Source: Picochlorum sp. SENEW3 (taxonomy: Eukaryota). From it: a stretch of 62,118 nt of DNA. Shown here in pieces: positions 3,848 to 62,118 of this stretch. The stretch covers positions 930,001 to 992,118 of the forward strand of contig CP120461.1 in assembly GCA_034226945.1 (NCBI GenBank), read 5' to 3'. The notes below the pieces were generated by a model. It saw only the letters and a list, made by a program, of their open reading frames with translations. It was not told the DNA's origin and made no database searches. Positions within the stretch are counted from its first letter, which is position 1. Every line of letters begins with the position of its first letter. Made by a program: the position numbers and the translations under genes.

Positions 3848-4345
3848 TTTAAAGCTTTATTCTGCGCACCGATGTAGCCAACGACGTGTCTTTACTGAAA
3901 GCTTTCAAAAGCCTCCTTCGGCAGCTGCTGTAACCGCTCACTCGAACGCCGTAGATAAGAATCTCTCCAATCTACTCACAGATCGCAGGGTTAAATATAT
4001 ATTTCAATTAATTCTTGACAAGATTTGAAGGGCATCGCATGTCTATCTAATGCTCGGATGATCATCGCCAGCTTCTATTGTGGGGCTCACCTTCTCTTCC
4101 CCCCGTCCAAGCCACTGTGCCAAGAGATCTCCTGATAAGGAGATCCAGGTTGGAGATGAGGTGGCCACCAAAGAAAAAGACTGATTGGATGAACAAGGGA
4201 AAGGGTCGCTATTGGTCACGATAGCAAAAGAAATTACTAAATAGCAGTCGCGATCGACGCTAGGTGGATTGATACAGTGCATCTATGCATTCGACGTTAC
4301 ATTTTGTGCAACCCACAGATGTATATATATGCTAGCCTCGCCTGT

Positions 4346-5559: not shown

Positions 5560-5982
5560 TTTTCTCGCCTACAATCCCGAAGAGTATAATATATTTTTTC
5601 AGATTTTTTCCTGATGATATACGACCACAATGGTGTAGATACCCTTCCTTCCTCCTTAGATCTACGTTCACAATTTGGTACGCTGGATTCGCTTTCTGAT
5701 GGTATTGCACCTTATCTGAAATGAAAAATGAAATCTTTCACGATATTTAAAGACATTTAGAGAGAATTCTTCGCTTCTTGGCCCTGTCGGATACTCGGCA
5801 AGCAGCTGCATAAGCAGGTGCATGTTCTTCATTCCAAGAGTTCCGTAATAAATACCATTTGCTTGTTCTTTTTCGCCCGATTGCTTTCAAATTCCCGATG
5901 AAGACTCAAAATTGAAAACAAAAGAATATTTTTATTATGTGGGATCATATGTTACACGCGTGGAAGAAGCATCGGCACTGCC

Positions 5983-39400: not shown

Positions 39401-42400
39401 CCAGTTTCGGGTAGATGCATTGAGATGTATGGCAGCGTATCACGGGCATGTCTCTTGGTACTGTTCAACCGTACATCCTCTGATGCATCCAATCTGCCCT
39501 ACCTTCCCAGACCAAGACATCTCATGGAGCGTTGGGTACAAGCAGAACTTTATTGCTCGGATGAAAGATCATAAAGTCTTTTCAGCGAGCCTATTACCAG
39601 GAATGTGCGTTTTCGCAATCATGTCTGATGCGGCACAGTTGTGCCTTGCTGGAAGGGCTGATTACCAACACCTTCTCAGGAGTGCAAATATTGGGACGCC
39701 TGTGCATCTTGACGACGCACATAGCCTTGTGGCAAAAGTGTCGCTTTCTACAGGCAAGGCCACGTTATGTGTGGATAACGGAAACTGCAGCAGGCCCAAC
39801 GCAATGTGTGGGATATGGTGTCTTTCTAGCCAGGGGCAAGGGCCCGTCAGCATGGACCCACGCCCACTGGTGCTGAACACTCATGCGAAACCACATACCA
39901 GTGCGCCTTCGATTGGTTTTCTTGCGCATGCTGTCGATCAAAAGGTCGAGATGGCAAATGTGCCTTCTCCTGAATTGCTTGATGGCTCAACTCATCTTGC
40001 CGCCTTCTCTGAAACTATGAAAGGGAGGGCTGTCTCTGTACCCGTCTCGTCTGAATGCTTGAGCATCGCATTTACTAGCCTCCATACTTCTAAAATAGTC
40101 CGATTTCAGGGTTTTGCAGTTTGCGATGATGCACGTGCAAATGAGAGGCTGAGAGACTACTTTGTCCATCTGCCAGGGACAAAATATACGTATATCAAGT
40201 CGCTGTACTCGGCATCGATCAAACGAGAGAGATCTTTGGAGGCTAACTTTTATTTTTTAAATGTAGATCACATCAATAATACTAGAAAAGCTCGTGAACT
40301 GTCTGATATCAGGCACCGCAAACGAGCAGTGCACAAGTTGCTAACATTGCAGGGGAGCATCACTTTTTCCTCTGCTAGGAGCCATAAAAATCCTCTTTTG
40401 GAGTACTCGACGCTAATAGAGTTTGTACGTACCCAGAATGGGAGATCATTCAGTTATCTGGCGCCCAAACTGTTGGGCGTGAGTTCGAGCTCAAGAAATA
40501 GCGGACAGCTTCAAGCGGCGAACACAGAAATAGGTTGTAAAGCAGACATCATAGAGCTCGATACCAGCGCCTGTAGACTGCACACTGTCGACTCCTGGAA
40601 AGAGGTACCGATTCCCTATAGTCCGAATGAAAATACGTTCGGGCCATCGAAAAACTACAGGAGCCTGGCAGCGGGTATCGCTGCGGTTTCAGGGGGAACT
40701 GACGGCATAGGCCTCCTCCTGGGACAGTGGCTCGCATCAGGCGAGGTCGAAACGCAATCATCCATCGCACTAGTTGGACGAACCCCGTTTCTCCCCACCT
40801 CGTTTCCTCAATCCTTTTCGCGCAACATTCCGGTGACGATAACGCAGCATGACTGCGCAACTGAGACGGGGGACCGATGGCATGGAAAAACTGTGCAGGG
40901 CTTGCACTGTTGGCATTCGTGCAAACATCTTTCATGGAGCTGGCGTTATCCTGGATCAAACGATTACTTCCACGACTTTTGGATCTTCGTTAAAAGTCTT
41001 TGCACCAAAATATTGGGGCATCAAACGGACAGCAGCACGCGCAGTGTCCTGTTTGGCTGTAGGAAGCATCGTCTCTTTGTCTTCCATGTCAATCACGATA
41101 GGAAATCCAGGACAGACTAATTACATCGCTGCAAATTCAGCAATGGAAACTGTTTCACAGGATATTGCGTCCACAGGCATAGATTCTCGAATCATTCGAT
41201 ATGGCCCATGGAAAAGTGTAGGCATGCTTGCAAAAAAGGAGAGTATCCTAAAGAGCTGAGCAAACTTGGATTACTACCTCTCTCTCCTTCGCAAGGTTTG
41301 GCTGCAACAGAGACATTTATCCGATCTTCGCATTTATTTTCTACACTAGCTCATATTAACTGGGAGACAAGCAATCGTGGTGATCCATTCGACAATGAAA
41401 GGTGCAACTTGGATTCTGAGGGCTGCCAGCATTCTGAAACCATCGATCAGTTGTCAGATACTCGGGATTCGTACGATCATGTTCGATCAATCATTCTTGA
41501 CATTCTCGCGGATGTCCTGGACGAGGTACCCTCCACTGATGATGATCCTTTCTTTGAGGTACGTAACTTGCTTGTATTTCACCAGACAAATGATATGAGG
41601 AGACATGCACCTTGTCCTGCAGATTGGTATTGATTCAATATCATCGATAGAAATTCATAGAAGATTGAATAAGAAGCTACAGAAAGATTTACCACCCACC
41701 ATCCTATTCGATTATCCAACGGTGTCAAGGCTCGCAAACGCTCTCTGTGGGCATCTGGAGATCCGTGTATCACATATCCTTCATGTGGATAATGGGAAAG
41801 AGAAGGACCGCAAGGTATCCATTTGCGGCACATCTCAAATCCTTCCAAACATAGGCCTGAAGCTGATTGAGGAATTTGTTAATTTGGTGCCTTCATCCAC
41901 GGATCTCCATAGTGTGCTCCCAAAGGACAGGTGGGATTTTGAGCGACACTTTTCGCTGTCAACGGGTGGCACGACAGCGTACACGAGTATTGGTGCATTC
42001 GTCCCCAATATATGGGCATTTGACCAAGACTTTTATGGATTAAAAACTAATGAAGCCAGACAAACAGATCCTCAACTGAGATCTCTGCTGCATACTACAG
42101 CAAATGCTATTCACTATTCTGGAATAACGGATCGCCTCCGAGATACAACTTATGGAGTCTTTGTTGGGTGCATGTTCTACGACTATTTGAGGATTATCCA
42201 AGGTGCTGCCTCGGGAATCGATGCAGCATCTATCATTGGTAACGGGGCGCCCTACTTGTGTGGGAGGATTGCCTATACATTCGACATGCAAGGCCCTTGT
42301 GCAGGCATTGATACGGCCTGTTCAAGCAGCCTGGTCGCTGTCGACAGCGCGTATCACGCAATATTGAACAGGCAAGTACGCCATTCTGTGGCTTGCGGAA

Positions 42401-44605
42401 CAAATGTTATCATCTGTCCAGGCACAACAGCGATGGTCTGTCAACTCGGAGCCCTGTCCAGATATGGACGATGCCTGAGCCTCGATGCAACTGCAGATGG
42501 ATATGGGCGCGGAGAGGGGATAGTGTCTCTTAATTTATCGGCAGACCATAATGAGAACACTCTGGCTTCCATCAGAGCAACTGCAGTCAACCAAGATGGA
42601 AGGAGTATTTCAATGACTGCCCCAAACGGACCAAGCCAAGAGGCTCTTCTCCGCTCATGCTTATCCAAGGGGGGGCTCACGAGTGATGACCTTGATCAGG
42701 TCGTAATTCATGGAACCGGTACCTTGTTGGGAGATCCAATTGAGTCTCAGGCACTACATAATCTTTTACAGGGACCAAGTGTCTCCCCGACCCACATAGC
42801 AGCTGTCAAGGCGCTTCTGGGGCACTGCGAAGGTGCTGCAGGGACAGTTGGTGTTCTGCTTTCTGTGTATACTGCATGCAGAAAGTCAACCCCATCGATC
42901 CAAACGCTGCGCTCGATGAACCCGCTAGTTCAGAACACCCTTAAGAGTGGGAAACTTGTACCAAGCCGCGAGCACGCGCCAGAACGTGCGACAATAGCCG
43001 GCGAGACTGTCTCTGGAAGCAGCTCATTTGGGATGAGTGGTACGAATGCGCATGCAATACTTTCAGGCACGCAGGTCTTCACGCCGGGTCGGCAACACGA
43101 GACGCTGTTAAAGGATCGCATGTATTCTTTTAGACTTTTTGTTTCGGAGTCCCTCGAGTTCCTCGGACATGAGGTGCAACATGCGTTGGATCTGTTTGAG
43201 TATAACGCGTCAAGCTCTACTGTGCAAGTCATGATGAATCATCAGATCACAGGTAAAACACTGCTTTTGTACCACCGCTTGATGGTATTTTCCTTTCCAT
43301 TCCGCTCAATATTTAGTTGCAAAACATTTTGGTTGTGCAGGCCGTAGTATAATCCCAGCATCTTTACAGATATATATTTGCTTTCAAACTTTGCTGCAGA
43401 CAACGACCACAAAATCCGAGTGGGGTATGAATACTTTTATCTTCTATAGGCCTTGTCTGATGAGCAATAATCTTCGATTGCTCGTACGTCACGATTTTGC
43501 TGAAGGCTCTCTTGCGATTCTGGACCGTGCAACCAGTGGTTTGGAATTCTCGTCGTCCCGGGTAGAATCTTTGTGCTGCCGCACGGGATGGACATCCGGG
43601 GCATCCCGCTCGAGCCTCCAAAGCCACGTGATGCAAAACTTTCTCTCTGCAAAAATTACGGAGCAATGTGTTGCGCTGATCTCGGCGGGTGGGCGGCACG
43701 TTGCTCCCATTCTTGATGCCTCGTTCCACCTAGGTGCAATTCATCAGACTGATTGCAGAATACCAGTATCATGCGGATCAATCCATTTCGGTGCCGATCC
43801 ATCATTCAATATGACTAAAAGTAACTTTTTTTCGAGTGCTGAAAGCTCAATAGAGTACCGAGACCAGAGTATGTACCATGGCCTTGCAAGGAGGGAGCAT
43901 TTCAAATCCAGGCAAATGAAAGTAAAACGCACACAGGGTGATCTGATGCACCAAGAATCCATCTGGCAATCCACTCCTGGATTCAAAGTTTTGCAACCAG
44001 GAGCCAGAATAAAGCAGACAATCGCGCCATTCTATCAGGCGAGCGATCCCGAACCACTTCGATTGGTTTCAACAAGTTTGGAGATGCTGTATGGAGGCAT
44101 CGCGACAAAGGAGGATGATTCCGTCTTTCTCTCCTATCAATATCCCTCCAATGATAGACAGTTTATAAGTCAATATCCACTGGGAGCTTGCTTACAACGA
44201 GTTTACAATTCCGAAGCTAACCAAGGGCTGGTGCAGCCCTTGAGCGGAGAGATGACCTCAAGACAATTCGTGCCGTTCGACAATGTCCCTGTCCAGTCAT
44301 CGCTGCAATACCCCATATCAAATCAGACTGCTAAGACTCCCGGGACACAAGGCGGAACCATTTTATCCTCATTAGGAGGTATTGGCATTCTTCTAGCTCA
44401 ATATTTTGCCACAATGGGCTCTGACATTCGTTCTTGCTCCCGACATGGCGTGACTGGCTCGTTACCATTGAGCAAAGGAATAGAAATCACTAAAGCAGAT
44501 GTATCGCATGCTGAGGATGTCCAGTTTCTGCTGTGCGATGCCACGCTCGGGTATGGGATCATGCACACCTCAGGATGTCTGCGTGATGGATTGATTCGCA
44601 GTATG
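33439..44605 (+). CDS. Multi-exon modular type I polyketide synthase without a recognisable AT domain: ACP-KS-(?)-KR-ACP-KS-DH-KR-ACP-KS-DH-KR(truncated); 3' end lost, possibly a pseudogene
   Basis: Three KS with DTACSSS/HGTGT/GH triads; ACPs GLDSL, GADSL, GIDSI; KRs GGTGGLG, GGTDGIG, SSLGGIG; DH motifs HKVFSASLLPG and HQITG|RSIIP; about 8 GT-AG introns; start codon tentative. Confidence 0.9.
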
Positions 44606-44829
44606 GACTTCCGAGTGGGTCCGTCGCATCTCGCACGCGGGCCGCGGGGGCCCGGCCGAGGCGGTCGCGCTCCTCCGGTCCGACCGGGCCTCCGACCGGG
44701 CCACTCGATCCACTTCAGAGGACGCGGCGGACGATTAGGGCAATGGCCCCTCGCGAGCTCGTTAGGGTATTTTCGGCGGTCGGGGGCCCCCAACGCCGCC
44801 TGGCCGGCCGTGTTTCCGCCTCCCCGCCA

Positions 44830-47800
44830 TCCTCGCCGCATTTCGGGATATATGCGGTCCCTGTGGAGGGGCGGGACGGGGTCCAGCAGGCGATGGCGAG
44901 GCTGCAGCTCTGCACAAAGTTTTTCTCCAGTCGCACACGTCCCACAGTCGAGTGCCCTGCAGCGCCCGTGAGGTCCTGTAGGGTCCTCCTTGGCCTCCTC
45001 GCCGCATTTCGAGACATACAGGATACCTATGGAGGGGATGGATGGGGTCTATCACGCGATGGCGAGGCTGCAGCTCTGCACAAAGTTTTCAATTCGCACA
45101 TGTCCCGAGGTGGAGTGGCATCCAGGCGTTGTGAGGTCCTTCTCGACATCCTCGCCGCATTTCGAGGCATGTACGATACCTATGGAGGGGATGGATGGGA
45201 TCTATCACGCGATGGCGAGGCTGCAGCTCTGCGCAAAGTGTTCAATGTGCACATGTCCCGAGGTGGAGTGGCATCCAGGCGTTGTGAGGTCCTTCTCGAC
45301 ATCCTCGCCGCATTTTGAGGCATGTACGATACCTATGGAGGGGATGGATGGGGTCTATCACGCGATGGCGAGGCTGCAGCTCTGCACAAAGTTTTCAATG
45401 CGCACATGTCCCGAGGTGTGGTGGCATCCAGGCGTTGTGAGGTCCTTCTTGGCATCCTCGCCGCATTTCGAGGCATGTACGATACCTATGGAGGGGATGG
45501 ATGGGGTCTATCACGCGATGGCGAGGCTGCAGCTCTGCACAAAGTTTTCAATTCGCACATGTCCCGAGGTGTGGTGGCATCCAGGCGTTGTGAGGTCCTT
45601 CTTGGCATCCTCGCCGCATTTCGAGGCATGTACGATACCTATGGAGGGGATGGATGGGGTCTATCACGCGATGGCGAGGCTGCAGCTCTGCGCAAAGTGT
45701 TCAATTCGCACATGTCTCGAGGTGGAGTGGCATCCAGGCGTTGTGAGGTCCTTCTCGACATCCTCGCCGCATTTCGAGACATGTACGGTACCTATGGAGG
45801 GGATGGATGGGGTCTATCACGCGATGGCGAGGCTGCACCTCTGCGCAAAGTGTTCAATTCGCACATGTCCCGAGGTGGAGTGGCATCCAGGCGTTGTGAG
45901 GTCCTTCTCGACATCCTCGCCGCATTTCGAGACATGTACGATACCTATGGAGGGGATGGATGGGGTCTATCACGCGATGGCGAGGCTGCACCTCTGCGCA
46001 AAGTGTTCAATCTGGCACATGTCCCGAGGTGGAGTGGCATCCAGGCGTTGTGAGGTCCTTCTCGACGTCCTCGCCGCATTTTGAGACATTGCCGATACCT
46101 ATGGAGGGGATGGATGGGGTCTATCACGCGATGGCGAGCCTGCACCTCTGCACAAAGTGTTCAATCTGCACACATGTCCCGAGGTGTGGTGGCATCCAGG
46201 CGTTGTGAGGTCCTTCTCGACGTCCTCGCCGCATTTCGAGACATGTACGATACCTATGGAGGGGATGGATGGGGTCTATCACGCGATGGCGAGCCTGCAG
46301 CTCTGCACAAAGTGTTCAATTCGCACATGTCCCGAGGTGGAGTGGCATCCAGGCGTTGTGAGGTCCTTCTCGACATCCTCGCCGCATTTCGAGACATGTA
46401 CGATACCTATGGAGGGGATGGATGGGGTCTATCACGCGATGGCGAGGCTGCAGCTCTGCACAAAGTGTTCAATTCGCACATGTCCCGAGGTGGAGTGGCA
46501 TCCAGGCGTTGTGAGGTCCTTCTCGACATCCTCGCCGCATTTCGAGACATGTACGATACCTATGGAGGGGATGGATGGGGTCTATCACGCGATGGCGAGG
46601 CTGCAGCTCTGCACAAAGTGTTCAATTCGCACATGTCCCGAGGTGGAGTGGCATCCAGGCGTTGTGAGGTCCTTCTCGACGTCCTCGCCGCATTTTGAGA
46701 CATTGCCGATACCTATGGAGGGGATGGATGGGGTCTATCACGCGATGGCGAGGCTGCAGCTCTGCACAAAGTGTTCAATTCGCACATGTCCCGAGGTGTG
46801 GTGGCATCCAGGCGTTGTGAGGTCCTTCTCGACGTCCTCGCCGCATTTCGAGACATGTACGATACCTATGGAGGGGATGGATGGGGTCTATCACGCGATG
46901 GCGAGCCTGCAGCTCTGCACAAAGTGTTCAATCTGCACATGTCCCGAGGTGGAGTGGCATCCAGGCGTTGTGAGGTCCTTCTCGACGTCCTCGCCGCATT
47001 TCGAGACATGTACGATACCTATGGAGGGGATGGATGGGGTCTATCACGCGATGGCGAGCCTGCAGCTCTGCACAAAGTGTTCAATTCTGCACATGTCCCG
47101 AGGTGTGGTGGCATCCAGGCGTTGTGAGGTCCTTCTCGACGTCCTCGCCGCATTTCGAGACATGTACGATACCTATGGAGGGGATGGATGGGGTCTATCA
47201 CGCGATGGCGAGCCTGCACCTCTGCACAAAGTGTTCAATTCTGCACATGTCCCGAGGTGTGGTGGCATCCAGGCGTTGTGAGGTCCTTCTCGACGTCCTC
47301 GCCGCATTTCGAGACATGTACGATACCTATGGAGGGGATGGATGGGGTCTATCACGCGATGGCGAGGCTGCAGCTCTGCACAAAGTGTTCAATCTCGCAC
47401 ATGTCCCGAGGTGGAGTGGCATCCAGGCGTTGTGAGGTCCTTCTTGGCATCCTCGCCGCATTTCGAGACATGTACGATACCTATGGAGGGGATGGATGGG
47501 GTCTATCACGCGATGGCGAGGCTGCACCTCTGCGCAAAGTGTTCAATTCTGCACATGTCCCGAGGTGGAGTGGCATCCAGGCGTTGTGAGGTCCTTCTCG
47601 ACGTCCTCGCCGCATTTCGAGACATGTACGATACCTATGGAGGGGATGGATGGGGTCTATCACGCGATGGCGAGCCTGCAGCTCTGCACAAAGTGTTCAA
47701 TCTGCACATGTCCCGAGGTGGAGTGGCATCCAGGCGTTGTGAGGTCCTTCTCGACGTCCTCGCCGCATTTCGAGGCATGTACGGTACCTATGGAGGGGAT

Positions 47801-50800
47801 GGATGGGGTCTATCACGCGATGGCGAGGCTGCACCTCTGCGCAAAGTGTTCAATCTGGCACATGTCCCGAGGTGGAGTGGCATCCAGGCGTTGTGAGGTC
47901 CTTCTCGACATCCTCGCCGCATTTCGAGACATGTACGATACCTATGGAGGGGATGGATGGGGTCTATCACGCGATGGCGAGGCTGCAGCTCTGCACAAAG
48001 TGTTCAATTCGCACATGTCCCGAGGTGGAGTGGCATCCAGGCGTTGTGAGGTCCTTCTTGGCATCCTCGCCGCATTTCGAGACATGTACGATACCTATGG
48101 AGGGGATGGATGGGGTCTATCACGCGATGGCGAGGCTGCACCTCTGCACAAAGTGTTCAATTCGCACATGTCCCGAGGTGTGGTGGCATCCCGGCGTTGT
48201 GAGGTCCTTCTCGACGTCCTCGCCGCATTTCGAGACATGTACGATACCTATGGAGGGGATGGATGGGGTCTATCACGCGATGGCGAGGCTGCACCTCTGC
48301 ACAAAGTGTTCAATTCGCACATGTCCCGAGGTGGAGTGGCATCCAGGCGTTGTGAGGTCCTTCTCGACATCCTCGCCGCATTTCGAGACATGTACGATAC
48401 CTATGGAGGGGATGGATGGGGTCTATCACGCGATGGCGAGGCTGCACCTCTGCACAAAGTGTTCAATTCGCACATGTCCCAAGGTGGCGTGTCATCCAGG
48501 CGTTGTGAGGTCCTTCTCGACATCCTCGCCGCATTTCGAGACATGTACGATACCTATGGAGGGGATGGATGGGATCTACCACGGGATGGCGAGGCTGCAG
48601 TTCTGCACAAAGTGTTCAATTCGCACATGTCCCGAGGTGGAGTGGCATCCAGGCGTTGTGAGGTCCTTCTTGGCATCCTCGCCGCATTTCGAGACATGTA
48701 CGATACCTATGGAGGGGATGGATGGGGTCTATCACGCGATGGCGAGGCTGCACCTCTGCGCAAAGTGTTCAATTCGCACATGTCCCGAGGTGTGGTGGCA
48801 TCCAGGCGTTGTGAGGTCCTTCTCGACGTCCTCGCCGCATTTCGAGACATTGCCGATACCTATGGAGGGGATGGATGGGGTCTATCACGCGATGGCGAGG
48901 CTGCACCTCTGCACAAAGTGTTCAATTCGCACATGTCCCGAGGTGGAGTGGCATCCGGGCGTTGTGAGGTCCTTCTCGACATCCTCGCCGCATTTCGAGA
49001 CATGTACGATACCTATGGAGGGGATGGATGGGGTCTATCACGCGATGGCGAGCCTGCAGCTCTGCACAAAGTGTTCAATCTGGCACATGTCCCGAGGTGG
49101 AGTGGCATCCAGGCGTTGTGAGGTCCTTCTCGACGTCCTCGCCGCATTTCGAGACATGTACGATACCTATGGAGGGGATGGATGGGGTCTATCACGCGAT
49201 GGCGAGGCTGCACCTCTGCACAAAGTGTTCAATTCGCACATGTCCCGAGGTGTGGTGGCATCCCGGCGTTGTGAGGTCCTTCTCGACGTCCTCGCCGCAT
49301 TTCGAGACATGTACGATACCTATGGAGGGGATGGATGGGGTCTATCACGCGATGGCGAGGCTGCACCTCTGCACAAAGTGTTCAATTCGCACATGTCCCG
49401 AGGTGGAGTGGCATCCAGGCGTTGTGAGGTCCTTCTCGACATCCTCGCCGCATTTCGAGACATGTACGATACCTATGGAGGGGATGGATGGGGTCTATCA
49501 CGCGATGGCGAGGCTGCACCTCTGCACAAAGTGTTCAATTCGCACATGTCCCGAGGTGGAGTGGCATCCGGGCGTTGTGAGGTCCTTCTCGACGTCCTCG
49601 CCGCATTTCGAGACATGTACGATACCTATGGAGGGGATGGATGGGGTCTATCACGCGATGGCGAGGCTGCAGCTCTGCGCAAAGTGTTCAATTCTGCACA
49701 TGTCCCGAGGTGTGGTGGCATCCAGGCGTTGTGAGGTCCTTCTCGACGTCCTCGCCGCATTTCGAGACATGTACGATACCTATGGAGGGGATGGATGGGG
49801 TCTATCACGCGATGGCGAGCCTGCAGCTCTGCACAAAGTGTTCAATTCGCACATGTCTCGAGGTGGCGTGTCATCCAGGCGTTGTGAGGTCATTCTCGAC
49901 GTCCTCGCCGCATTTCGAGACATGTACGATACCTATGGAGGGGATGGATGGGGTCTATCACGCGATGGCGAGCCTGCAGCTCTGCACAAAGTGTTCAATC
50001 TGGCACATGTCCCGAGGTGTGGTGGCATCCAGGCGTTGTGAGGTCCTTCTCGACGTCCTCGCCGCATTTCGAGACATGTACGATACCTATGGAGGGGATG
50101 GATGGGGTCTATCACGCGATGGCGAGGCTGCAGCTCTGCACAAAGTGTTCAATCTGCACATGTCCCGAGGTGTGGTGGCATCCAGGCGTTGTGAGGTCCT
50201 TCTCGACGTCCTCGCCGCATTTCGAGACATTGCCGATACCTATGGAGGGGATGGATGGGGTCTATCACGCGATGGCGAGCCTGCACCTCTGCACAAAGTG
50301 TTCAATTCGCACATGTCCCGAGGTGTGGTGGCATCCAGGCGTTGTGAGGTCCTTCTCGACGTCCTCGCCGCATTTCGAGACATGTACGATACCTATGGAG
50401 GGGATGGATGGGGTCTATCACGCGATGGCGAGCCTGCAGCTCTGCACAAAGTGTTCAATTCGCACATGTCCCGAGGTGGAGTGGCATCCAGGCGTTGTGA
50501 GGTCCTTCTCGACGTCCTCGCCGCATTTCGAGGCATGTACGGTACCTATGGAGGGGATGGATGGGGTCTATCACGCGATGGCGAGGCTGCACCTCTGCGC
50601 AAAGTGTTCAATCTGCACATGTCCCGAGGTGGAGTGGCATCCAGGCGTTGTGAGGTCCTTCTCGACATCCTCGCCGCATTTCGAGACATTGCCGATACCT
50701 ATGGAGGGGATGGATGGGGTCTATCACGCGATGGCGAGGCTGCACCTCTGCACAAAGTGTTCAATTCGCACATGTCCCGAGGTGTGGTGGCATCCAGGCG

Positions 50801-53380
50801 TTGTGAGGTCCTTCTCGACGTCCTCGCCGCATTTCGAGACATGTACGATACCTATGGAGGGGATGGATGGGGTCTATCACGCGATGGCGAGGCTGCAGCT
50901 CTGCACAAAGTGTTCAATTCGCACATGTCCCGAGGTGTGGTGGCATCCAGGCGTTGTGAGGTCCTTCTCGACGTCCTCGCCGCATTTCGAGACATGTACG
51001 ATACCTATGGAGGGGATGGATGGGGTCTATCACGCGATGGCGAGGCTGCAGCTCTGCACAAAGTGTTCAATTCGCACATGTCCCGAGGTGGAGTGGCATC
51101 CAGGCGTTGTGAGGTCCTTCTCGACATCCTCGCCGCATTTCGAGACATTGCCGATACCTATGGAGGGGATGGATGGGGTCTATCACGCGATGGCGAGGCT
51201 GCACCTCTGCGCAAAGTGTTCAATTCGCACATGTCCCGAGGTGGAGTGGCATCCAGGCGTTGTGAGGTCCTTCTTGGCATCCTCGCCGCATTTCGAGACA
51301 TGTACGATACCTATGGAGGGGATGGATGGGGTCTATCACGCGATGGCGAGGCTGCACCTCTGCACAAAGTGTTCAATCTGCACATGTCCCGAGGTGTGGT
51401 GGCATCCAGGCGTTGTGAGGTCCTTCTCGACGTCCTCGCCGCATTTCGAGACATGTACGATACCTATGGAGGGGATGGATGGGGTCTATCACGCGATGGC
51501 GAGGCTGCAGCTCTGCACAAAGTGTTCAATTCGCACATGTCCCGAGGTGTGGTGGCATCCAGGCGTTGTGAGGTCCTTCTCGACATCCTCGCCGCATTTC
51601 GAGACATTGCCGATACCTATGGAGGGGATGGATGGGGTCTATCACGCGATGGCGAGCCTGCACCTCTGCACAAAGTGTTCAATTCGCACATGTCCCGAGG
51701 TGTGGTGGCATCCAGGCGTTGTGAGGTCCTTCTCGACGTCCTCGCCGCATTTCGAGACATGTACGATACCTATGGAGGGGATGGATGGGGTCTATCACGC
51801 GATGGCGAGCCTGCAGCTCTGCACAAAGTGTTCAATTTGCACATGTCCCGAGGTGGAGTGGCATCCAGGCGTTGTGAGGTCATTCTCGACGTCCTCGCCG
51901 CATTTCGAGACATGTACGATACCTATGGAGGGGATGGATGGGGTCTATCACGCGATGGCGAGGCTGCACCTCTGCGCAAAGTGTTCAATTCGCACATGTC
52001 CCGAGGTGGAGTGGCATCCAGGCGTTGTGAGGTCCTTCTCGACATCCTCGCCGCATTTCGAGACATGTACGATACCTATGGAGGGGATGGATGGGGTCTA
52101 TCACGCGATGGCGAGGCTGCAGCTCTGCACAAAGTGTTCAATCTGGCACATGTCCCGAGGTGGAGTGGCATCCAGGCGTTGTGAGGTCCTTCTTGGCATC
52201 CTCGCCGCATTTCGAGACATGTACGATACCTATGGAGGGGATGGATGGGGTCTATCACGCGATGGCGAGGCTGCACCTCTGCACAAAGTGTTCAATCTGC
52301 ACATGTCCCGAGGTGTGGTGGCATCCAGGCGTTGTGAGGTCCTTCTCGACGTCCTCGCCGCATTTCGAGACATTGCCGATACCTATGGAGGGGATGGATG
52401 GGGTCTATCACGCGATGGCGAGCCTGCAGCTCTGCGCAAAGTGTTCAATTCGCACATGTCTCGAGGTGGAGTGGCATCCGGGCGTTGTGAGGTCCTTCTC
52501 GACATCCTCGCCGCATTTTGAGACATGTACGATACCTATGGAGGGGATGGATGGGGTCTATCACGCGATGGCGAGCCTGCAGCTCTGCACAAAGTGTTCA
52601 ATCTGCACATGTCCCGAGGTGGAGTGGCATCCAGGCGTTGTGAGGTCCTTCTCGACGTCCTCGCCGCATTTCGAGACATGTACGATACCTATGGAGGGGA
52701 TGGATGGGGTCTATCACGCGATGGCGAGGCTGCAGCTCTGCACAAAGTGTTCAATTCGCACATGTCCCGAGGTGGAGTGGCATCCAGGCGTTGTGAGGTC
52801 CTTCTCGACGTCCTCGCCGCATTTCGAGACATTGCCGATACCTAAGGAGGGGATGGATGGGGTCTATCACGCGATGGCGAGCCTGCACCTCTGCACAAAG
52901 TGTTCAATTCGCACATGTCCCGAGGTGTGGTGGCATCCCGGCGTTGTGAGGTCCTTCTCGACGTCCTCGCCGCATTTCGAGACATGTACGATACCTATGG
53001 AGGGGATGGATGGGGTCTATCACGCGATGGCGAGGCTGCACCTCTGCACAAAGTGTTCAATTCGCACATGTCTCGAGGTGGCGTGTCATCCAGGCGTTGT
53101 GAGGTCCTTCTCGACGTCCTCGCCGCATTTCGAGACATTGCCGATACCTATGGAGGGGATGGATGGGGTCTATCACGCGATGGCGAGGCTGCAGCTCTGC
53201 ACAAAGTGTTCAATTCGCACATGTCCCAAGGTGGCGTGTCATCCAGGCGTTGTGAGGTCCTTCTTGGCATCCTCGCCGCATTTCGAGACATATACGATAC
53301 CTATGGAGGGGATGGATGGGATCTACCACGGGATGGCGAGGCTGCAGTTCTGCACAAAGTGTTCAATTCGCACATGTCCC
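44830..53380. repeat. Tandem array of a 153-bp unit, about 56 copies (first copy degenerate)
   Basis: Consensus ctcgccgcatttcgagacatgtacgatacctatggaggggatggatggggtctatcacgcgatggcgaggctgcagctctgcacaaagtgttcaattcgcacatgtcccgaggtggagtggcatccaggcgttgtgaggtccttctcgacatc repeated head-to-tail without spacers. Confidence 0.98.
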
Positions 53381-53559
53381 TGAAATGAGATTCTCTTAAT
53401 CGGCCAAGATGTATTACAATTGGGGTAATCATTAAAACAAGGAGGATGTTTGTGAGACTTTATCCTGGTTGGTGCTTTGTGCAACTATACGATGCAACAT
53501 TTTGGATCCTTTATATTGCAACAGGGTTGGGACTTATTGCTCCTCTTGCAAGAGTCCTA

Positions 53560-56500
53560 TTACTCTTCCTGATTCTCCTCCTCCTCCTCCTCCTCCTCCT
53601 CGGGGATTTGGAATTCGATTCTTCCCAGAACAGTTTTGGACAGAGCGTAAAGGTACGTGCTCACATGTGTGTCCAACAGGTCGAGAACATACTGCTCTTG
53701 GGCTCTGCTAATCCTCCTCTTCTCGTGATCGCTGATGTCGTTAGAAAACCCCAGTTGATATTGAGCATAGTTTTTCGTGAAGAGATTATCCACATTTTTC
53801 AGTTTGAGAAGTGCATCCCCAGGGCTAGGGTCCGAGGGCTTCCTATTGAATGGATGCAATGCCCATTTCATTTTCCTGTTCTCAACCTGAAGAAACTCGG
53901 GCAAATGAGAAGGCTTTGCTTTATGCAGCACCACCCTCCATAGACTTTCTAGAAAGTCCATGCCCCAACGCCTTTGAGACCCTAGCACCCCATCCGCAGT
54001 TGGGCCGAGCATGGCTTTCAGAAATGTCTGTTGGTGTGCAGTGTTGTTCACACGACCCTGACCCTGGGAGGATTGTCCACTTGTTAATGTGGGTGCAATG
54101 ACGCTCAGATAATCCAAAAGACACCTCGTAAACGCAAGTAGCAAGGTCCTGTTGTAGGTAGAAGTATGGACACGACACCTTTCGACCAATGCCTTGACCA
54201 CGCCTTGTGGGCCTGTGCTCTCCACTGTTTCGATCGTGACGAAACGCTCCTGTTGTCCACTGGCCGAATCGTCCGTTTTGAGGTAGCATTGTCGTAAGCA
54301 ACTCATGATTTTCCGGAAATTGTTGTCATCGAAGATCACCACAACCCCGAAACCACTTCCTGCACAGGAAGGCCCTATGATAGGAGGGCTCATGTCCAGC
54401 TCTGTCCCGGTCCTCTCGTGGCGGATCTCCAGGATCTCGTACTTGTTTAACTGCCAGACAAACCTCTTGTGGCGAGATTTTGCCTTGACCCTGACGCTAA
54501 ACTCGAAATTTCTCACGAGATCCTCCAGAAAGGTCAGCGACAGGTACTGTAACAGAACCAACGGCAGCGCAGACGGTAGACAGAACTGCAAGATCTCCGT
54601 AACCATGTGCCTACATTCGACAAAAAGTGACATGGCAATCAAATAAGGCGATGAGAGGACGAGCAGGAACGCTAAACTCGTCACAAGGACGAAATAGGAC
54701 ACAACATACCTGGACAGTGAAAATAGGTTTTTTACGAAATTGAGTTAACTCGCCGTCATCTGCATTCCTCAACCTCCTTGTTAGCAGGTACATGTAATCT
54801 TTCAAGATGAAGCTCGAACTCGCCCCAAGCAGGTCGTGGGTGCCGACGACACGTCCAACGCGGCTGCTGTTTTCCCACACCCCGAAGAGGAGGTGCGGGG
54901 GAAGCACCAAGTATCCGCTGGTTTTATAGCAATCGGTGATGGCCTTCCCAGCACTTGAGCGCAAATGTGCCGCGAGAGGTAGTTCTTTAGGGAGCTTCCT
55001 GTCGAGGGAATAAAATACCAGGGTGCCCGTGCCCGTACAAAGTGCTATGGAATCCACCACCTGGTACGAACAGTGCCCATGATGGCTGATCTCCGAGTAC
55101 GCCCTCAATGACAGGACCTCCATCCAACCTTTCAGGCTCCTGACGAGAGACGGGTACTCATCATGATGACTATACGACAAGAGTTCGCTAAACTTGACCG
55201 ATGCAAGTTTGGATAGTCTCCCAAGAATGTGCTCTCTCACAGCCTCCCCACAAAGCTCCTGTCCCGCCCATCCTCGTCCTCTGTCCTCCCCGTTTCATGT
55301 TCGCCCCACATTTGTAGTGCAGGACACTCACATCCTCAAACCTCAACGGAGTAGGTTTTGGCTGTCTGACGAGGAAGTCCTCGATAGTTTTATCCTGCAG
55401 CAAGACATGGAAAAAGCAGCTGAGAGGGGTCGTCACAAGACAACAGATATATAGTATATATATCCAATCAAGCAGTTGCATACGTACAAATGCCCCGACG
55501 TAGTCAGCAAGAGAAGATTCGATATAACACATTTTTGTCTCATCCAATGGGGGAACGGCCAGCCTGGCTAAGGATTTCTTGCACTCCACCTGTTTATGTT
55601 TGAACATGGATCTGTCGTCGAACGAACGATTGTAAGTTTCATACACTGACAGGATGGGGGCGTACTTCCCCCGCGGTTGGGTGTTCTCTTCTTTTCCTGC
55701 CCCATCCTCTCCTTCACTTTCTGTTTCATCATCATGATCACCTTGACTGGCCTCCCCTCTTCCTCCCTGAGGCCTCGCAGGGAGGACTCCTTCCTCTGGG
55801 ACTTGCTGCTCGACCCCTCTGGTTTGTATGGCCTGGGGCCGCAGGACCTCCACGATGCCATAGCGATCGTATCCCAATTGGTTCAAATCTGCATGTTCGT
55901 GCAAGGAAAATTTCGCTCCCGAAGGGCCGGGGCCGCTGGAGTTTCCCCAGGTAGAGTTCAAGATAAAATGACCATCTGGCTGCCGTTCTGCATCCTCTCC
56001 ACGGGGTCGTCGCAAGGCATCCCTCACCTCTTCCAACTTCTCGCGGGTCACGTGGAGCCTGATGTTCTGCTGTCCGTCGGACCCTTGCTCCTCGGGGAAG
56101 TACCCTGATGGCTCGGTGTGTGGCACCCATTCAGTCCTGTGAGGGTCCCAACATTCCATGACGAGCCCATCCCGACACTGGGGACGACGTACATGTCTGC
56201 CCCTGCCGTTTTTGGAGGCCTCACATACGCTTTCAGGGTTTCTGCAATACAGCCTGCAGCTGAAACAAGCCTGTCCCTTCTATCCTCGTCCGGATGCGGC
56301 ATGTCCAGTTCTCCTGTGTGCAGCGCACAGTCCATTGCGGAGTAGGACATCCTACTGAGCTGGATGGTGGCCGAAAACCACAAATTCTTGAGCATCTCTC
56401 TGAACCGCGCGCAAGTCGCCTCCGCAAGCACACTGTTGTCGTCGGTCTCGTCGGTCCCAGGGGCCCCTCGTGTTGCAAGCCTGCGCCTGCTTTGGGAGGG

Positions 56501-57647
56501 ACCCATCAAATCAGAGATCACCTGTTGGATTGTGAGGGTGGCGCGCCGGCCACGAGCAGCCTCGCGAACCTTCTCCCCTAAACCTGGTTGCCTGATGGCC
56601 AAGAACTCATCGATGCCGTCACTGGATGACAAAGCCTTCATCACATCTCCCGACAGGTCTGCACTGTAGGCAGCCTCCTCGCCGCTGCGGTTCGTCCCAC
56701 CCCTCGTAGAAGAACGGCGCGTGGCTCCTGCACTAGATTGCCCGATTTGGCCCGAGACCTCCCCATTCCTGATGGCGATGATGTAGTCCAAGATCAGGTC
56801 GAAGGCCACCACATCCACAGGAGACTTCAAGTCTGTCAACATCTGGGACACGAAAAGCGACGAGTGCTGCTGACTCCCAACGGTTCCCAGGTAGTGCTTT
56901 TCCCTAAATGCAGAGACAGCGGTGTCTCCCTGCCCGTGATGGTGGGTTTTCAGGGGTCCAGCAAGGAGCTGAATGCTTGGGACAACCTCAGGAGACCCTG
57001 ACGGGAATATCACAGCCCTACCCCTCTCCAGCGCATTCCGACGAATGCATATTTTGCTGCACATGGGACAAGGGAAGAATTAGTATTTTAATTTTAATCG
57101 CAACGAGCGCAGTGAAAACATATCAACGGAGAGCAGCAACAGGTGAAAAAACAAGGAGTCACGTACTCGAAGGTCTCGCTCGGCGAGATACAAACCACAT
57201 TAAACACGTCCAGCCGGTTTGAAATAATCTCCACTGTATCAATATCAGGATTCGCCCTCAACCAGGGCCCCTCCACGCCGTCGTATATCCGCATCAGGGG
57301 TGCCAGGGCCAGGGGCTCGGGGACGTCTCCGCCTATCTCCTCCACGAGATCGCCACGTCTCGCCACCGGTCGATCACCAATGCGATACAGCAGTTGGTGC
57401 CACTTGCACCTGTCGAATTCAGGCATATTCGTCCTCCCGGTTCCCCTTCAGGCAGCGATGCCCGCAACCTGTTCACCACATTCCCAGTACGCGTTCCATC
57501 CAGGGCGGTGGTCATCAGATACTCTTTAACCTGCGTCTCACGGAGTTTCCAGGCGATTTGGTGCTCCTCCATCTGTTCCGCGGCTCCCGTGCTCCTCCTG
57601 CGGCACTGCCCAAATTCCAAGATCTTGCGGAATCCTGCGGACGACAT
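53560..57647 (-). CDS. Orphan protein of about 1260 aa (reconstructed; introns 57057-57166, 55395-55487, 54611-54709; about 5 single-base shifts at homopolymers)
   Basis: Six overlapping minus-strand ORFs tile the interval; GTACGT/GTATGT donors and YAG acceptors; poly-Glu C-terminus; no domain recognised. Confidence 0.55.
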
Positions 57648-58004
57648 GCTTTGGGTTTGCCTCGTTAGACTGTCGAATCTTCCTTTTTAACTCTAGATAT
57701 TTATATTTTGGTATATCAGTAGGTGGGAAATAGTAGGGGGTACACAGTGGCGTCTCATTTTTCCGTGGGCATTCCCTCTACGCAGTTTTCGAGGCAAGGG
57801 TCCCACGGAAGGGGACCTCCGACAGGACACCGAAGTCGCGCTCGCGACAAGACATTTTCCCCCGCGAATAAACATTCCCCAATACCCGAAACCGACATGG
57901 TTTTTTGTGTTCATCAAATGGACAATTCGAAATAAAAAGAGACGTTTAGAAGGAAGGGGTCTCTAGCAAGAGACAGTGCTTTTTCTCGTGGAAGCGAACT
58001 TGGA

Positions 58005-60118
58005 ATGGCAAGGCGATGCGAGAAGTGTTCTCTGGGCCTCCGCAGAAAGAGGGACCGCCGCAGTCGGAATGGAGTCACACTCTGCAGGGCATGTTATGAC
58101 GAAGAGGAAAGGCCTAGTGGTTCCGTCCCTCGGGGTGGCTCGACCCAACTACTACAAAGAAGTAGTGGGGTTGCGAGCACGGACCAGCTGCAGGGGCGCC
58201 AAGGAGAAGAGGGGAGACCAGGTGCGCGCGTGTTTGGAAACATTTTTCTTTCCTTGTTTTATTTCGGCCCTTTTTTTAAGGGGAGAGTCTGTCTTGCTGG
58301 CATGGCTGACCGGAGGTGTGGTGTGCAGGCAGGCCTGAGGGTGATGTTGTGGAAGCTGGCCCAAGTTTCCAGCCCGCGCTTTCCGGGATCTTGCAACGTT
58401 TTCGCGCATTCTCACAGAGTGTTGCAAGCCAAGTGACCCATTCTGTCGGGGTTTCGGCGGGTGTGGAAGGGGCGTTGGCGATAGAGGGAGGCTCGGACAG
58501 CCGTCCTCCCGTTCCCATGGATGGCTGGATCCAAACAGAAAGAAGAAGCAGGGCCGCCAGCGCGGACCAGCAGCAGGGCCGCGAAGAAAGAGGGGAGGGG
58601 ATCACAAGTGCGTTTTGTTTTACTTTTTTTTTTTTTGGCGCTTTGTTCCCTTTTTCTTGCTGGCATGGCTGACCGGAGGTGTGGTGTGCAGGCAGGCCTG
58701 TTGTGGAAGCTGGCCCAAGTTTCCAGCCCCCCCTTGTGGAGTTGTCGCATCGTTATGATGGAATAGAGAGGTTCATGAGCCATCAAGAAGTGGGCAGACA
58801 GGGAGATGGAGTTCTCTTCGGGTCCACGGCTGGTGACGGATCTGACCTTGACGATGAGCCGGTCGTGGGGGGGCAGCCCGAAGTCCATCATCCACCTCTT
58901 CCCTTGGTGTTGGACGGAGGCGCTGGATTCCGATGGCTGCAGGTGTACAAGCGGGATTTGCTCGTCGGGGCAGCGGCGGCGTCGGCGGACCCCGAACGAA
59001 GGGCAACGCTGGAAGAGATTCGCACCCTCCACCGCGACGGCGAACTGTACAATTCTCGGGAGGAGTTGCTTCAACCCCTGCGGTCTTTAAACATTGAGGA
59101 TTTGCATCTGGTAAACAACGAGGTGGCTGAGGAGCAATGTGAGATTGTCACGAGGCAGGAGGAACGTCATGCCCCCCTCAACCCAACAGACGATGACGGT
59201 TTTGCAATCCGCTTAGGCCCGCCTGGGGAGCATCCTTCCTCCAATCCAGTCTCCCCGACCAGGGTTCGAATAGCACAAGGAGAAAAGCTTGTGTTCGAAG
59301 AAATCAAGATCCTGCGAGGCGTGGATAGGTGGTTCACGGCACCGGACCCACGGCCAAAATATTATCGTGTCTACTTGCCCACGTACATTATTGGCCCCCA
59401 TGAGAGAACGGGGATGTTTTTTACCGTGCCGAGCTGGGCCATGAGTTTTTCTGCCTTGTCAGATGCCCAGAGTTGCGTGATCTTCCATCGCGCCTTTTGC
59501 ACTGCCGTCGAGAATAAATCACTTTGCAACCCTCAAGGTGAGCAGCAGCCTTGGCACTTGAGCGTTCTCGAGCGGACAGAGGGCGTCGAGGCCTGGATGG
59601 TGACACGTTTCGAAAGCAGCGTGGAGTCGGTATTAAGAGACCTGGACCTGTTGTTCAATGAAGTGTATGGACGAGGCGTGGAGAACATTCCATTGCCTGA
59701 ATCTGGACCCATGGCCACTCCATGCGAGATCTACCTGATGGCGTTGTGCAGATTGCGCGGTTCCTCGTTTTTTGATGAAACAGATGCCAGCTTGATGAGG
59801 ACCACATATGTGGACTGGAAGCTGCGCCACCAGCCGGAAGAGCGTCGCGCACACATTTGCCTGGGGGACCTCTGGCGTACTTGGTGGAGTCTGTCGCCGG
59901 ATGACCATGACCATGATCGGTTCGAGTTATTGAAGATGACCCGCAGTGGCGCCATGAAACCTTGTGTGTTACGAGGTGGTGATATCCTGAGACTTCTCAC
60001 GAGAGAGTTTGTGGACCTGTATGACGCCTGCAGGTCAGGCGGGAGCAATAAACCAAACGCCACTCCGCTTGGTCCCTACATCTTTCATCAGACCGTCTTC
60101 CAGAGGCAGACGGAGTGA
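58005..60118 (+). CDS. Orphan protein of about 640 aa with an N-terminal C-x2-C-x18-C-x2-C zinc finger (introns 58222-58328, 58608-58691)
   Basis: Both GTGCG...GCTGAC...TGCAG introns splice in frame (217+279+1427 nt); MARRCEKC...NGVTLCRAC. Confidence 0.65.
58171..58729 (+). repeat. Internal duplication of an exon end, intron and next exon start (two copies)
   Basis: tcttgctggcatggctgaccggaggtgtggtgtgcaggcaggcctg and ttgtggaagctggcccaagtttccagccc each occur twice, about 360 bp apart. Confidence 0.85.
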
Positions 60119-61499
60119 GGGTCGAGAAAGGAAAAGATCTAGTGCTACTACTACAAACCATATCAGTATATGTAATTATGCAGTAAAAAAACAGAAGAAG
60201 ATGGTGCGTGGGAGACGCGCAGAGGCCTCTTTTTTTCTGCTTCGGGGCACCTCGAGTGAAGGAACAAAAGCTCTCCGGGTGTGTGTAGTGTAGGAGGGTT
60301 TAGACGCAAACTCGTTCCAATCAATTCCACTCATTATCTAGTATTATTATTAACACGAGGAGCGGCACTTGTTGAACGGGAGGTACAAAAAACAGTTCAG
60401 GTAGTAGTAGGAATCGACGAGGCCGTGGCACATCCTCCTCGGGAGGAAGTATAGGCTACTATGACCCGCCATGATCTCTTGTTTCGTTTAAGTGTCTCGT
60501 GAAAAACCAGGTATTGGATCCAAAGCGGCGTCTCCGTATTCTGCGGAAGAAAGGCGTCGTGCGATGGACGAGCTCGACTCGGGAGCGCTGGCTCCCGCAG
60601 CCCGCTCGAACGTCCCCACATCATGGCTGGGGAATTGTATTATTAGTATAAGTATTAATATTGTGTGGATGCGCAAGGTGGTCTTTCTTCTTGCTGGGGT
60701 ATAGCTGCTCCCAGCTCCCACAGAGGAGGAGGAGGAAGGGGAGTAGCGTGAGCCCTTCCTTGGCTTCTGTCCAAAGGCGGCGTTGGGAAAAAAACGTAGG
60801 ACACCCCTTGGTCTTCTCCACGCCAAGCAAGTATCCGGTCAACGGATACCTGTGATGGTTGCGTGCTCATACCGTGATTATCTCCGGTCCAGTGCACACG
60901 TTGACAGGCAAACAGGCCGAGGGACCATTCCCCTGGATGGATGGCACCTCGCCACGCCGCCTCGTCGTTGATCTGCATCCCACCCCCGACAAAACAGGTG
61001 ATTGGACCGAAGATGTGTGTCGGTCCATAACCTTCGGTCGACGGCATGATTGGATGGGTCGGGGAAGATGGATCCTTTTCGTCGTTCGTAAATGAGACAA
61101 TAAAAAAACAGGGCGACCATGTAATGCCACGCCTTTTTTTATTAATTTTTTAAGAAGACCAAACCACCCGGCCAGGCTCCGCGAGATTTTTGTGTCTTCT
61201 TTTTTTCCCGCGTTTCCCGCTCACAAGGTCGGTTTGACCGAGGGTGTGGTGGTTTCGTGTTATTCCCAGCAGATCGTTCCCATCAAAGACCTCTTCTGAT
61301 GGGAAGAAGCCTGGATGCGGACGCACAGACAGCAGCCAGGGTTGGAGAGGAGAAGACGAGCTATAAAAACAGCAGTCTTTCTTGTCTATGACACCACACG
61401 AGTGTTCCTCATTTTTTTTTAACGATATCTCGTAATTATGGGAGTATTACTACTATTGGGAACATACTGTGTAGACGTAGTACTAGAACACTGAAACTG

Positions 61500-62020
61500 C
61501 TCTCTCTCTGGTCTTGTTGTCGCCGTCGCTCAGGTCAGGTGGAGCAGCTTGTTGTGCAGTATTGTTGTTGTGAAGACGACGATTTGTTTGCATTTCATTC
61601 TTGTTTCATGATGATGTCTTTTCTTTATTTTTATTCTTTTCATACACTTGCCTTCTTCTTGTTGTACCTTTCTCTATCTCTCAGATATGAGATGTTGTCT
61701 GTGAGTCTCTCCTATCTCCAGGTTGTTCTTCTTGTCGTGTGTTTCGTTGTGTCGTGTCGTGTCGTGTTATTCTTGGTGGTGTAGATTATTGTTGTGCATG
61801 TTATTGTTGTCATTATCAATGAAGAGGAGTATTATGAGCTATTTTGTTGTTTTTTTGGTTGGTGTGTTTTTTTTGGTTAGGGTATTTTGGTCTTTTTGAG
61901 GGTGGTTTTTTGTGATTTATTTTGGCTTTTTGTGATGTTTTCATTTATTTTGGTGGTTTAATATTTGTATTATTTGAAAATTGTGTTTATTTTTTGTTTG
62001 TGTGGTGGACTGGGTGTGAA
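61500..62020. other. Low-complexity, strongly T/G-skewed tract
   Basis: Runs of ttgttg, gtcgt, ggtggtttt; A and C scarce on the + strand, especially after 61830. Confidence 0.8.
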
Positions 62021-62070
62021 TATGTGGCTATATACCCTCATTACCCTCACTGCCAAGAACGACGGTATGC

Positions 62071-62090
62071 ATAGGGTATAGGGTATAGGG
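62071..62090 (+). repeat. Three TATAGGG-like units (telomere-repeat variant)
   Basis: ataggg tataggg tataggg. Confidence 0.5.
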
Positions 62091-62118
62091 AGCAATACGT
62101 AACTGAACGAAGTACTGA

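Follow-up and report, generated by a model that had tools for sequence, protein, structure and literature searches.

Subtelomeres of green algae have been described as tandem repeats peculiar to each species, accompanied on their centromeric side by a shared spacer (PMC8287924, Chaux-Jukic et al. 2021). According to this description, chromosome ends of Chlamydomonas reinhardtii are composed of telomere, Sultan array, Spacer and a G-rich microsatellite, the last lying on the inner side of the spacer, and the array of ~850-bp Sultan units touches the telomere; those of Coccomyxa subellipsoidea contain the 166-nt repeat Subrel-I (1-11 units per end) and a spacer of ~180 nt, and the array mostly does not adjoin the telomere (PMC8287924). 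In Chlamydomonas telomerase mutants, subtelomeric and other elements are reported to be joined at junctions with a few bases of microhomology, which were attributed to MMBIR (break-induced replication mediated by microhomology) or to MMEJ (end joining mediated by microhomology) (PMC10620057). The present analysis concerns a 62,118-nt stretch of the genome of Picochlorum sp. SENEW3 (assembly GCA_034226945.1, contig CP120461.1, positions 930,001 to 992,118 of the forward strand; hereafter the window, numbered from its first base), in which a modular type I polyketide synthase (PKS) gene is cut and followed, up to the right end of the window, by a block of a different nature. The block is of a kind already known, the green-algal subtelomere with satellite and spacer. 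The explanation favoured here, and considered probable, is that the block is a Picochlorum subtelomere and that a chromosome-end rearrangement replaced the distal part of the PKS gene with a subtelomere copy.

From the chromosome arm outwards, the block consists of a spacer (element E), a satellite of 55 units, a divergent gene pair, a T/G tract and a TATAGGG telomere. An earlier reading of the same letters (the original prediction) had described a cut PKS, a switch to GC-rich DNA, an array, an orphan gene pair and a skewed tail, all of which are found in the sequence. Of the identities that it offered for the block, the chromosome-structural module agrees with the telomere at the end and with the spacer-and-satellite anatomy of green-algal subtelomeres.

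Anatomy of a Picochlorum chromosome end

At its right end the window reaches the terminus of a Picochlorum chromosome, since three outward-pointing TATAGGG repeats (62070-62090, + strand, with the G-rich strand toward the window end; the only three in the record) are followed by a non-genomic Nanopore ligation read-end adapter (62091-62118, + strand). The adapter was recognized from an exact 22-mer at 62092-62113, for which no chance occurrence is expected; the same 22-mer is printed as a Nanopore read-end adapter in a preprint (bioRxiv 10.1101/2022.07.07.499093), and the SENEW3 genome paper reports the use of Nanopore reads (PMC11092101). Picochlorum chromosome ends have been somewhat puzzling, as the canonical plant repeat TTTAGGG is reported to be absent from Picochlorum assemblies (PMC6141220, Krasovec et al.); on the basis of read data, a later study predicted CCCTATA to be the telomere motif of the genus (PMC8287931, Fajkus et al.). 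In the paper library searched, no prior description of Picochlorum subtelomeres or satellite DNA was found among the matches listed, the satellite part being judged by title and abstract. With the block, the anatomy of a Picochlorum chromosome end that bears the predicted TATAGGG telomere is described for the first time, and one such end is seen in full, with telomere, T/G tract, genus-restricted gene pair, 153-bp satellite and shared spacer.

The sequence immediately inside the telomere is a T/G-rich tail (61401-62069, + strand), defined by its skews and by its likeness to sequence found left of other E copies. Between 61.5 and 62.0 kb its AT skew is -0.53 to -0.63 and its GC skew reaches +0.77, in keeping with the skewed tail of the original prediction. 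A decayed telomere tract was considered for this tail and rejected, as 14-mers with at most 4 mismatches from the repeat are no commoner in it than in shuffled sequences. By eye, two C-strand-like motifs (…TATACCCT…TTACCCT…), opposite in direction to the terminal G-strand repeats, are visible at 62030-62069, just inside the telomere.

At the other end of the block, on the centromere side of the satellite array, lies element E (44609-44785, + strand), a non-repetitive 177-nt spacer with 72% GC. E was traced in Logan contigs from four public runs (X1, X3, X9 and X15; X3 is a gut metagenome), which were compared with the window over 42800-44980, and it occurs in other genomic contexts in these other runs. 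Its contig word depth is raised in all four runs, for example to 417 against 62.8 in the flank in X1 (6.6x) and to 1127-2110 against 60.9 in X9 (18-35x); because summed contig depth is not copy number, these values are read only as more than one copy. The sequence left of other E copies is T/G-rich and resembles the window tail, with an X1 flank matching 61973-61993 with 3 mismatches and an X15 flank matching 61854-61872 with 1 mismatch. To the right of one E copy in X1 stand three TATAGGG repeats (21 letters, in one contig), and the boundary between E and the first satellite unit is bridged, with at least 31 letters on each side, by two contigs in X3 and two in X9. These flanks of E in the contigs of other runs indicate that both orders, T/G tract, E and array as well as T/G tract, E and telomere, exist. 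E is a shared subtelomeric spacer. It is not a diverged satellite unit, since it aligns to the unit with a score of 15 whereas shuffled sequences reach 17.4 on average, and a search for hairpin or dyad structure in E and in the satellite unit gave z-scores of only 0.17 and 0.59.

E is followed by a degenerate first satellite unit, X (44786-44981, + strand), of which ~160 nt align to the unit consensus and which, in register at about 44811-44963, is 64% identical to the reference unit. The array proper (44982-53380, + strand) was identified with Tandem Repeats Finder as a single array with a period of 153, 54.8 copies, 95% matches and a score of 14996. Its ~55 copies of the 153-bp unit are in direct orientation, with the last unit truncated, and its 8,399 bases agree with the 8.5-kb array first described. 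The spacing between units is 153 bases in 43 of 55 cases, 154 in 10, 155 in one and 166 in one, and no higher-order periodicity was found in the array. The extra base of the 154-nt units lies at one of two fixed sites (6 and 4 of the 10 units), so these units form a subfamily and do not reflect random errors. The remaining 53 kb of the window contain no copy of the satellite, and no exact match to the conserved 24-mer of the unit core was found in the JGI metagenome contigs. In X1, contig depth summed across the unit core amounts to ~400x that of the flank, a value that is not a copy number. The satellite may serve as an end buffer or as heterochromatin; the CpG observed/expected ratio, 0.92 in the array and 0.71 in the left flank, says little about heterochromatic state.

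A coding function of the satellite was also considered and rejected. Two + frames are open through the array, but the variable sites are aperiodic by codon phase (7/10/10), 11 of the 55 spacings (the ten of 154 and the one of 155 bases) shift the frame, and the Pfam matches of open reading frames (ORFs) in the array occur without any stretch that passes alone. As a separate observation, four short G-tracts in a row occur once per satellite unit, on the + strand like the telomeric G strand (55 matches on + and 1 on -).

In comparison with the published systems, the locus has three of the features by which subtelomeres of the type described in PMC8287924 are recognized there, namely a chromosome end, a species-specific array in direct orientation and a shared proximal spacer. 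The likeness to the trebouxiophyte Coccomyxa includes the length of the unit (153 nt here and 166 nt there) and of the spacer (177 nt and ~180 nt), as well as the reported case of one spacer copy that abuts the telomere (PMC8287924), which has its parallel in the X1 copy of E. The two differ in that their sequences are unrelated, the array here has 55 units compared with the 1-11 per end reported for Coccomyxa, two protein-coding genes stand here between array and telomere, and the telomere repeat is TATAGGG rather than TTTAGGG. With Chlamydomonas, the locus shares the inward succession of array, shared spacer and G-rich tract, E being preceded elsewhere by a T/G tract, and its elements, too, are probably shared between chromosome ends. 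In the account of the Chlamydomonas ends (PMC8287924), by contrast, the Sultan unit is ~850 bp long and its array abuts the telomere, a gene pair is not mentioned, and heterochromatin marks are shown.

Truncation of the PKS gene at the spacer

The PKS gene (34247-44610, + strand), delimited by Pfam matches and orthologue alignment, has its 3' end cut inside a KR domain. Its Pfam domains follow the order KS, KR, ACP, KS, DH, ACP and KS in the ORFs at 34247-43347, and the last PKS ORF reads ...HTSGCLRDGLIRSMD, after which its frame stays open for another 121 codons of unrelated, GC-rich DNA before it reaches a stop at 44969-44971. PKS homology breaks off at 44610/44611, within the KR domain. The switch claimed by the original prediction is therefore real, but it lies four bases to the right of the position then given, 44606. 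The DNA beyond it is GC-rich as had been stated; GC content across the whole window rises from 0.43-0.51 over 1-44 kb to 0.565-0.575 over 44-53 kb.

Two longer PKS relatives were obtained with the last 442 residues as query, P0016 (1659 aa), which is 92% identical to the window PKS, and P0017, which is 67% identical. The alignment of P0016 runs to its residue 1003, corresponding to window position 44611, and nothing further right in the window corresponds to its remaining 656 residues, which comprise the rest of the KR domain with the GQAAYAAAN tyrosine region, an ACP and a KS. Since the KR domain of P0016 spans residues 956-1080 (Pfam), the window KR is cut after about 48 of 125 aligned residues, which bears out the claim that it stops before the catalytic Tyr region. 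A functional KR requires a complete Rossmann-type domain with the catalytic Tyr (PF08659), and the last module in the window has no counterpart of GQAAYAAAN. Across the cut site, P0016 reads ...SMDLDGLRATLAPK... and P0017 reads ...SIHLEGLRATLASK..., and both continue to the KR tyrosine, ACP and KS.

An allele without the block, which the original prediction had proposed to look for, was found in three of the four runs. In X3, X9 and X15, a contig tracks the left flank as far as 44610 and carries on into other sequence, with 13,796 letters beyond 44610 in X9 and 1,695 in X3. Read by eye in the PKS frame, the first 30 letters past the junction give L-E-G-L-R-A-T-L-A-A, where the orthologues have LDGLRATLAP and LEGLRATLAS, and these 30 letters do not occur in the window. 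The flanks differ from the window at 5 of 1,811 positions in X3 and at 32 of 1,811 in X9 (0.3-1.8% divergence). As the contigs of three runs and the orthologous proteins all continue the KR domain past 44610, an intact PKS allele exists; the gene is intact in close relatives and cut in this assembly. The sequence that follows the junction in X9, at least 13.8 kb, is missing from this position, and the distal segment was presumably lost rather than moved. The 3' part of the PKS does not lie to the right within the window.

The junction itself consists of the two bases TT (44609-44610, + strand), a 2-nt microhomology common to the intact PKS allele and to other E copies. Contigs holding E match the window from 44609 (X1 and X15) or from 44610 (X9). 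In the proposed mechanism, all sequence beyond codon D of '...LIRSMD' in the PKS KR domain would have disappeared from the chromosome in the lineage of this assembly, and the broken end would then have acquired a subtelomere copy from another chromosome end, joined at the TT microhomology. The join might have been made through MMBIR, or through end joining (MMEJ or non-homologous end joining, NHEJ) to a freed terminal fragment, leaving a truncated PKS whose frame would run 121 codons into the spacer. The choice of MMBIR or end joining as the putative repair pathway draws on the Chlamydomonas telomerase mutants, in which internal sequence is likewise reported to be joined to subtelomeric elements through a few bases of microhomology (PMC10620057); those were laboratory mutants, whereas the present case concerns an ordinary strain and a pathway suggested by a single junction.

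A rearrangement of this kind would provide a natural case in which an event at a chromosome end has halved a secondary-metabolite gene that is whole in close relatives, 0.3-1.8% divergent in the flank. It would bear on the choice of strains in an industrially used alga and on the rate of gene loss at the ends of compact genomes.

Some further observations concern the contigs of X1 near the junction. A 78-kb X1 contig has 0 differences from the left flank and stops at 44569, 41 bases short of the junction; it was counted neither for nor against any explanation, and no repeat within the window was found that would account for the stop. The X1 contigs do not cover 44570-44608 or 44786-44843, stretches that are unique to this locus, and this is not evidence either way.

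The divergent orphan gene pair

Two genes in divergent orientation occupy the space between array and telomere, with 357 bp between their start codons (57648-58004, from the gene models). The plus-strand gene (58005-60118) encodes 640 aa in three exons (58005-58221, 58329-58607 and 58692-60118), separated by introns of 107 and 84 nt with GT..AG borders, and its exon model equals P0003 letter for letter. The product is marked by a CxxC-x18-CxxC motif at the N terminus, with a basic run; an NCBI entry for Picochlorum sp. SENEW3 has the identical protein, and a protein of strain BPE23 is 99% identical to it. Within this gene, a direct duplication with 71% identity (58133-58381 and 58519-58735) comprises an exon end and an intron, and both introns end in the same 46-nt stretch. 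An AlphaFold2 model of the 640-aa protein, built with 4 sequences, had a mean predicted local distance difference test score (pLDDT) of 29.9 and was unusable.

The minus-strand gene (53563-57647) is the larger one and was followed by tblastn of P0010 through frames -2/-1/-3/-2/-3/-1. Intact copies elsewhere encode 1257 aa (P0010) and 1255 aa (P0011). Relative to these, the window copy has at least 3 frame breaks, at ~57444, 56166 and 55300, of which two are homopolymer-length differences; the breaks may be consensus errors or real decay. At this locus the large gene is annotated as two proteins, P0009 and P0008. A HMMER search with P0007 against 1.84 billion representatives returned 20 proteins with E <=0.001, 15 of them with E <=1e-10, and none of these 20 relatives contains a Pfam family. 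Among ten of the P0007 relatives and their clusters, the members with a named organism are from Picochlorum only. A 1396-aa BPE23 paralogue aligns with the large protein over 1,240 positions at 23% identity. This conservation over the full length of a paralogue, together with named relatives from Picochlorum only, marks the large protein as a member of an old, constrained, genus-restricted family. The two orphan proteins are not related to each other (hhalign probability 0.5%).

The two genes are adjoining, with consecutive locus tags, at no fewer than four loci. These include SENEW3 5472-5474, present on two records, SENEW3 4526-4529, whose plus gene is split (P0004/P0005), BPE23 7224/7225 on a 12.9-kb contig, and a diverged pair, SENEW3n2 3979/3980, with 65% and 47% identity. 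The BPE23 genome paper mentions three contigs described as 'unassigned repeat area' (PMC9615354). The protein records behind P0003/P0006 and P0009/P0019 are on a 1.76-Mb record, with pair accessions 345 apart and the diverged large gene marked 'partial'; from this numbering we infer that a second pair might lie at the far end of that record. The pair probably represents a fast-evolving subtelomeric family, and the two protein families are candidates for end-specific functions. Such chromosome ends are the probable home of this conserved orphan gene pair.

The original prediction had taken the pair for spliced genes of no known family, and neither has a Pfam match. At E values up to 10, Pfam gave no match for P0010, P0003 or P0006, and PHROGs and NCBIfam gave none for the orphan proteins. 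Among PDB sequences, only two chance-level matches were obtained for P0010 (E 0.65 and 1.2), and the ESM Atlas had no usable match for either protein. No relative of either protein was found in IMG/VR, as confirmed by tblastn, and no member of the plus-gene family in the JGI metagenome contigs. For 69 further ORFs of the block, no significant domain was detected, the sub-threshold Pfam matches being to families unrelated to mobile elements or viruses. Transposase, reverse transcriptase (RT), integrase, helicase, nuclease and capsid families had no match in Pfam, PHROGs or NCBIfam, which agrees with the statement of the original prediction that no DDE, RT, HUH, recombinase or capsid motif was to be seen, profile searches of both proteins and the 69 ORFs having found none. 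Terminal inverted repeats (TIRs) and long terminal repeats (LTRs) are absent, the repeats of the block being restricted to the internal duplication of the plus gene and simple CTC/GAG runs. tRNA and Rfam scans gave no match.

Alternative explanations and remaining features of the window

Several points weigh against the explanation by a chromosome-end rearrangement. The most direct is that none of the 32 contig pieces listed from the four runs, 159 further ones lying outside that listing, bridges the PKS-E junction with at least 31 letters on both sides. Sequence spanning ~44,600, which the original prediction had wanted from long reads, was sought in contigs only, and a chimeric contig keeps some probability. 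In addition, the PKS meets E at the exact base where other E copies meet their T/G flank; this coincident start of E counts against a random break-and-copy event, which would not predict it. The array does not adjoin the telomere, from which it is separated by 8,689 bases and two genes, unlike in the commonest Chlamydomonas layout, class A (PMC8287924). Adjacency of array and telomere is not defining for the wider kind, however, as it is also reported to fail in Chlamydomonas class C and at most Coccomyxa ends. Finally, the Nanopore-based record still contains the adapter and the minus gene contains homopolymer indels, which indicates that local assembly quality is imperfect.

Some of these points bear on an assembly misjoin, in which a genuine subtelomere not attached to the PKS in the cell would have been joined to it at 44610 by the assembler or through a chimeric read. 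Besides the unbridged junction, the adapter left at the record end and the indel-type frame breaks, it would be consistent with the abnormal Hi-C signals and the hard-to-assemble repeat-rich regions reported in the SENEW3 genome paper (PMC11092101). Assemblers usually misjoin through a shared repeat, whereas the PKS and E share only 2 bases; moreover, nothing like the intact continuation is present in the window, and E is complete from the same first base as its other natural copies. A misjoin is accordingly regarded as unlikely, but it is kept under serious consideration because of the missing bridging contig, the adapter left in the record and the indels in a multi-copy gene; the join is presumably real in the cell and not confined to the assembly. 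A balanced rearrangement, by which the chromosome was split or exchanged an arm inside the PKS so that the 3' half and the distal genes now stand at another end, with both new ends capped by subtelomere copies, would fit the possible chr04/chr06 translocation and the chr09/chr10 fusion or fission polymorphism reported for SENEW3 (PMC11092101), as well as the finding that the pair at this locus appears on two records, the 1.76-Mb record among them. Neither the window nor the searches made, none of which was aimed at it, revealed the missing 3' half of the PKS, and this explanation is held to be improbable.

The headline of the original prediction, a new mobile or selfish element, would here be a discrete unit with its left terminus at the first base of E, which spreads between chromosome ends and attaches to broken ends by means of an unrecognized enzyme. 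Large cargo-carrying mobile elements of the Starship and Maverick/Polinton types exceed 10 kb and can interrupt a host gene, and the block resembles them in its length of more than 10 kb, in interrupting a host gene and in carrying genes of unknown function. Its multi-copy nature, the two genes that travel as a pair, the left edge of E that is identical in the PKS and tail contexts, and the large protein, whose full-length conservation at 23% identity in a distant paralogue implies a real protein under constraint, speak for such an element. So does the GC content at third codon positions (GC3), which is 0.60-0.65 in the genes of the block (53563-60118) and 0.46-0.51 in ten left-flank ORFs (9832-44608); high GC3 is also expected of recombination-rich chromosome ends. 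The block differs from the cargo-carrying types in having no mobilisation enzyme, terminal repeats or target-site duplication and in having a telomere on one side. There is no mobilisation or capsid match in Pfam, PHROGs or NCBIfam, no match among PDB sequences and no TIR or LTR; a target-site duplication is not definable, because the right flank is the telomere and not the remainder of the PKS. The termini and the missing PKS half that the original prediction proposed to look for did not appear in the window, and its headline is not supported and very unlikely to be correct.

Multi-copy coding units that stand beside telomeres and are copied between ends are familiar from the yeast Y' elements and the fungal telomere-linked helicase genes. 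These have recognizable helicase domains, in contrast to the two orphan proteins, neither of which has a recognizable domain. There is a slim prospect that the gene pair is the coding core of an end-dwelling selfish unit, reaching from a fixed left terminus at E through the satellite and the pair to the T/G tract, that copies itself between chromosome ends and is able to cap broken ones. Such a unit might, with a similarly low probability, play a role analogous to that of yeast Y' elements or Drosophila telomeric retrotransposons with enzymes of no known family. If this were true, its signature would be the same first base of E at the PKS and tail junctions, the full-length conservation at 23% identity and the joint inheritance of the pair, and it is mainly the meeting of PKS and E at the exact base of the other copies that keeps this small probability. 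A degenerate viral insert, also offered by the original prediction, or a centromeric satellite is the least credible of the explanations considered. Orphan proteins, an atypical base composition and a satellite unit of nucleosome length would suit them, but no IMG/VR relative or PHROG match was found, another E copy abuts telomere repeats, and 8.7 kb separate the array from a telomere.

Between the plus gene and the T/G-rich tail, 1.3 kb (60119-61400) contain no recognized gene, the ORFs of at least 60 aa in this interval having no Pfam match, with no Rfam or tRNA match either. To the left of the block, 22 of the 26 larger ORFs scanned have Pfam matches, consistent with the earlier assignment of the left-hand genes to known families. 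Polysaccharide lyase family 14 domains occur there in three tandem ORFs on the minus strand (975-5568; E 2e-63, 8e-54 and 7e-45). The ORF just upstream of the PKS (30560-32182) has a partial match to the SBP (squamosa-promoter-binding) zinc finger (E 7e-07), which fits a green-lineage genome.

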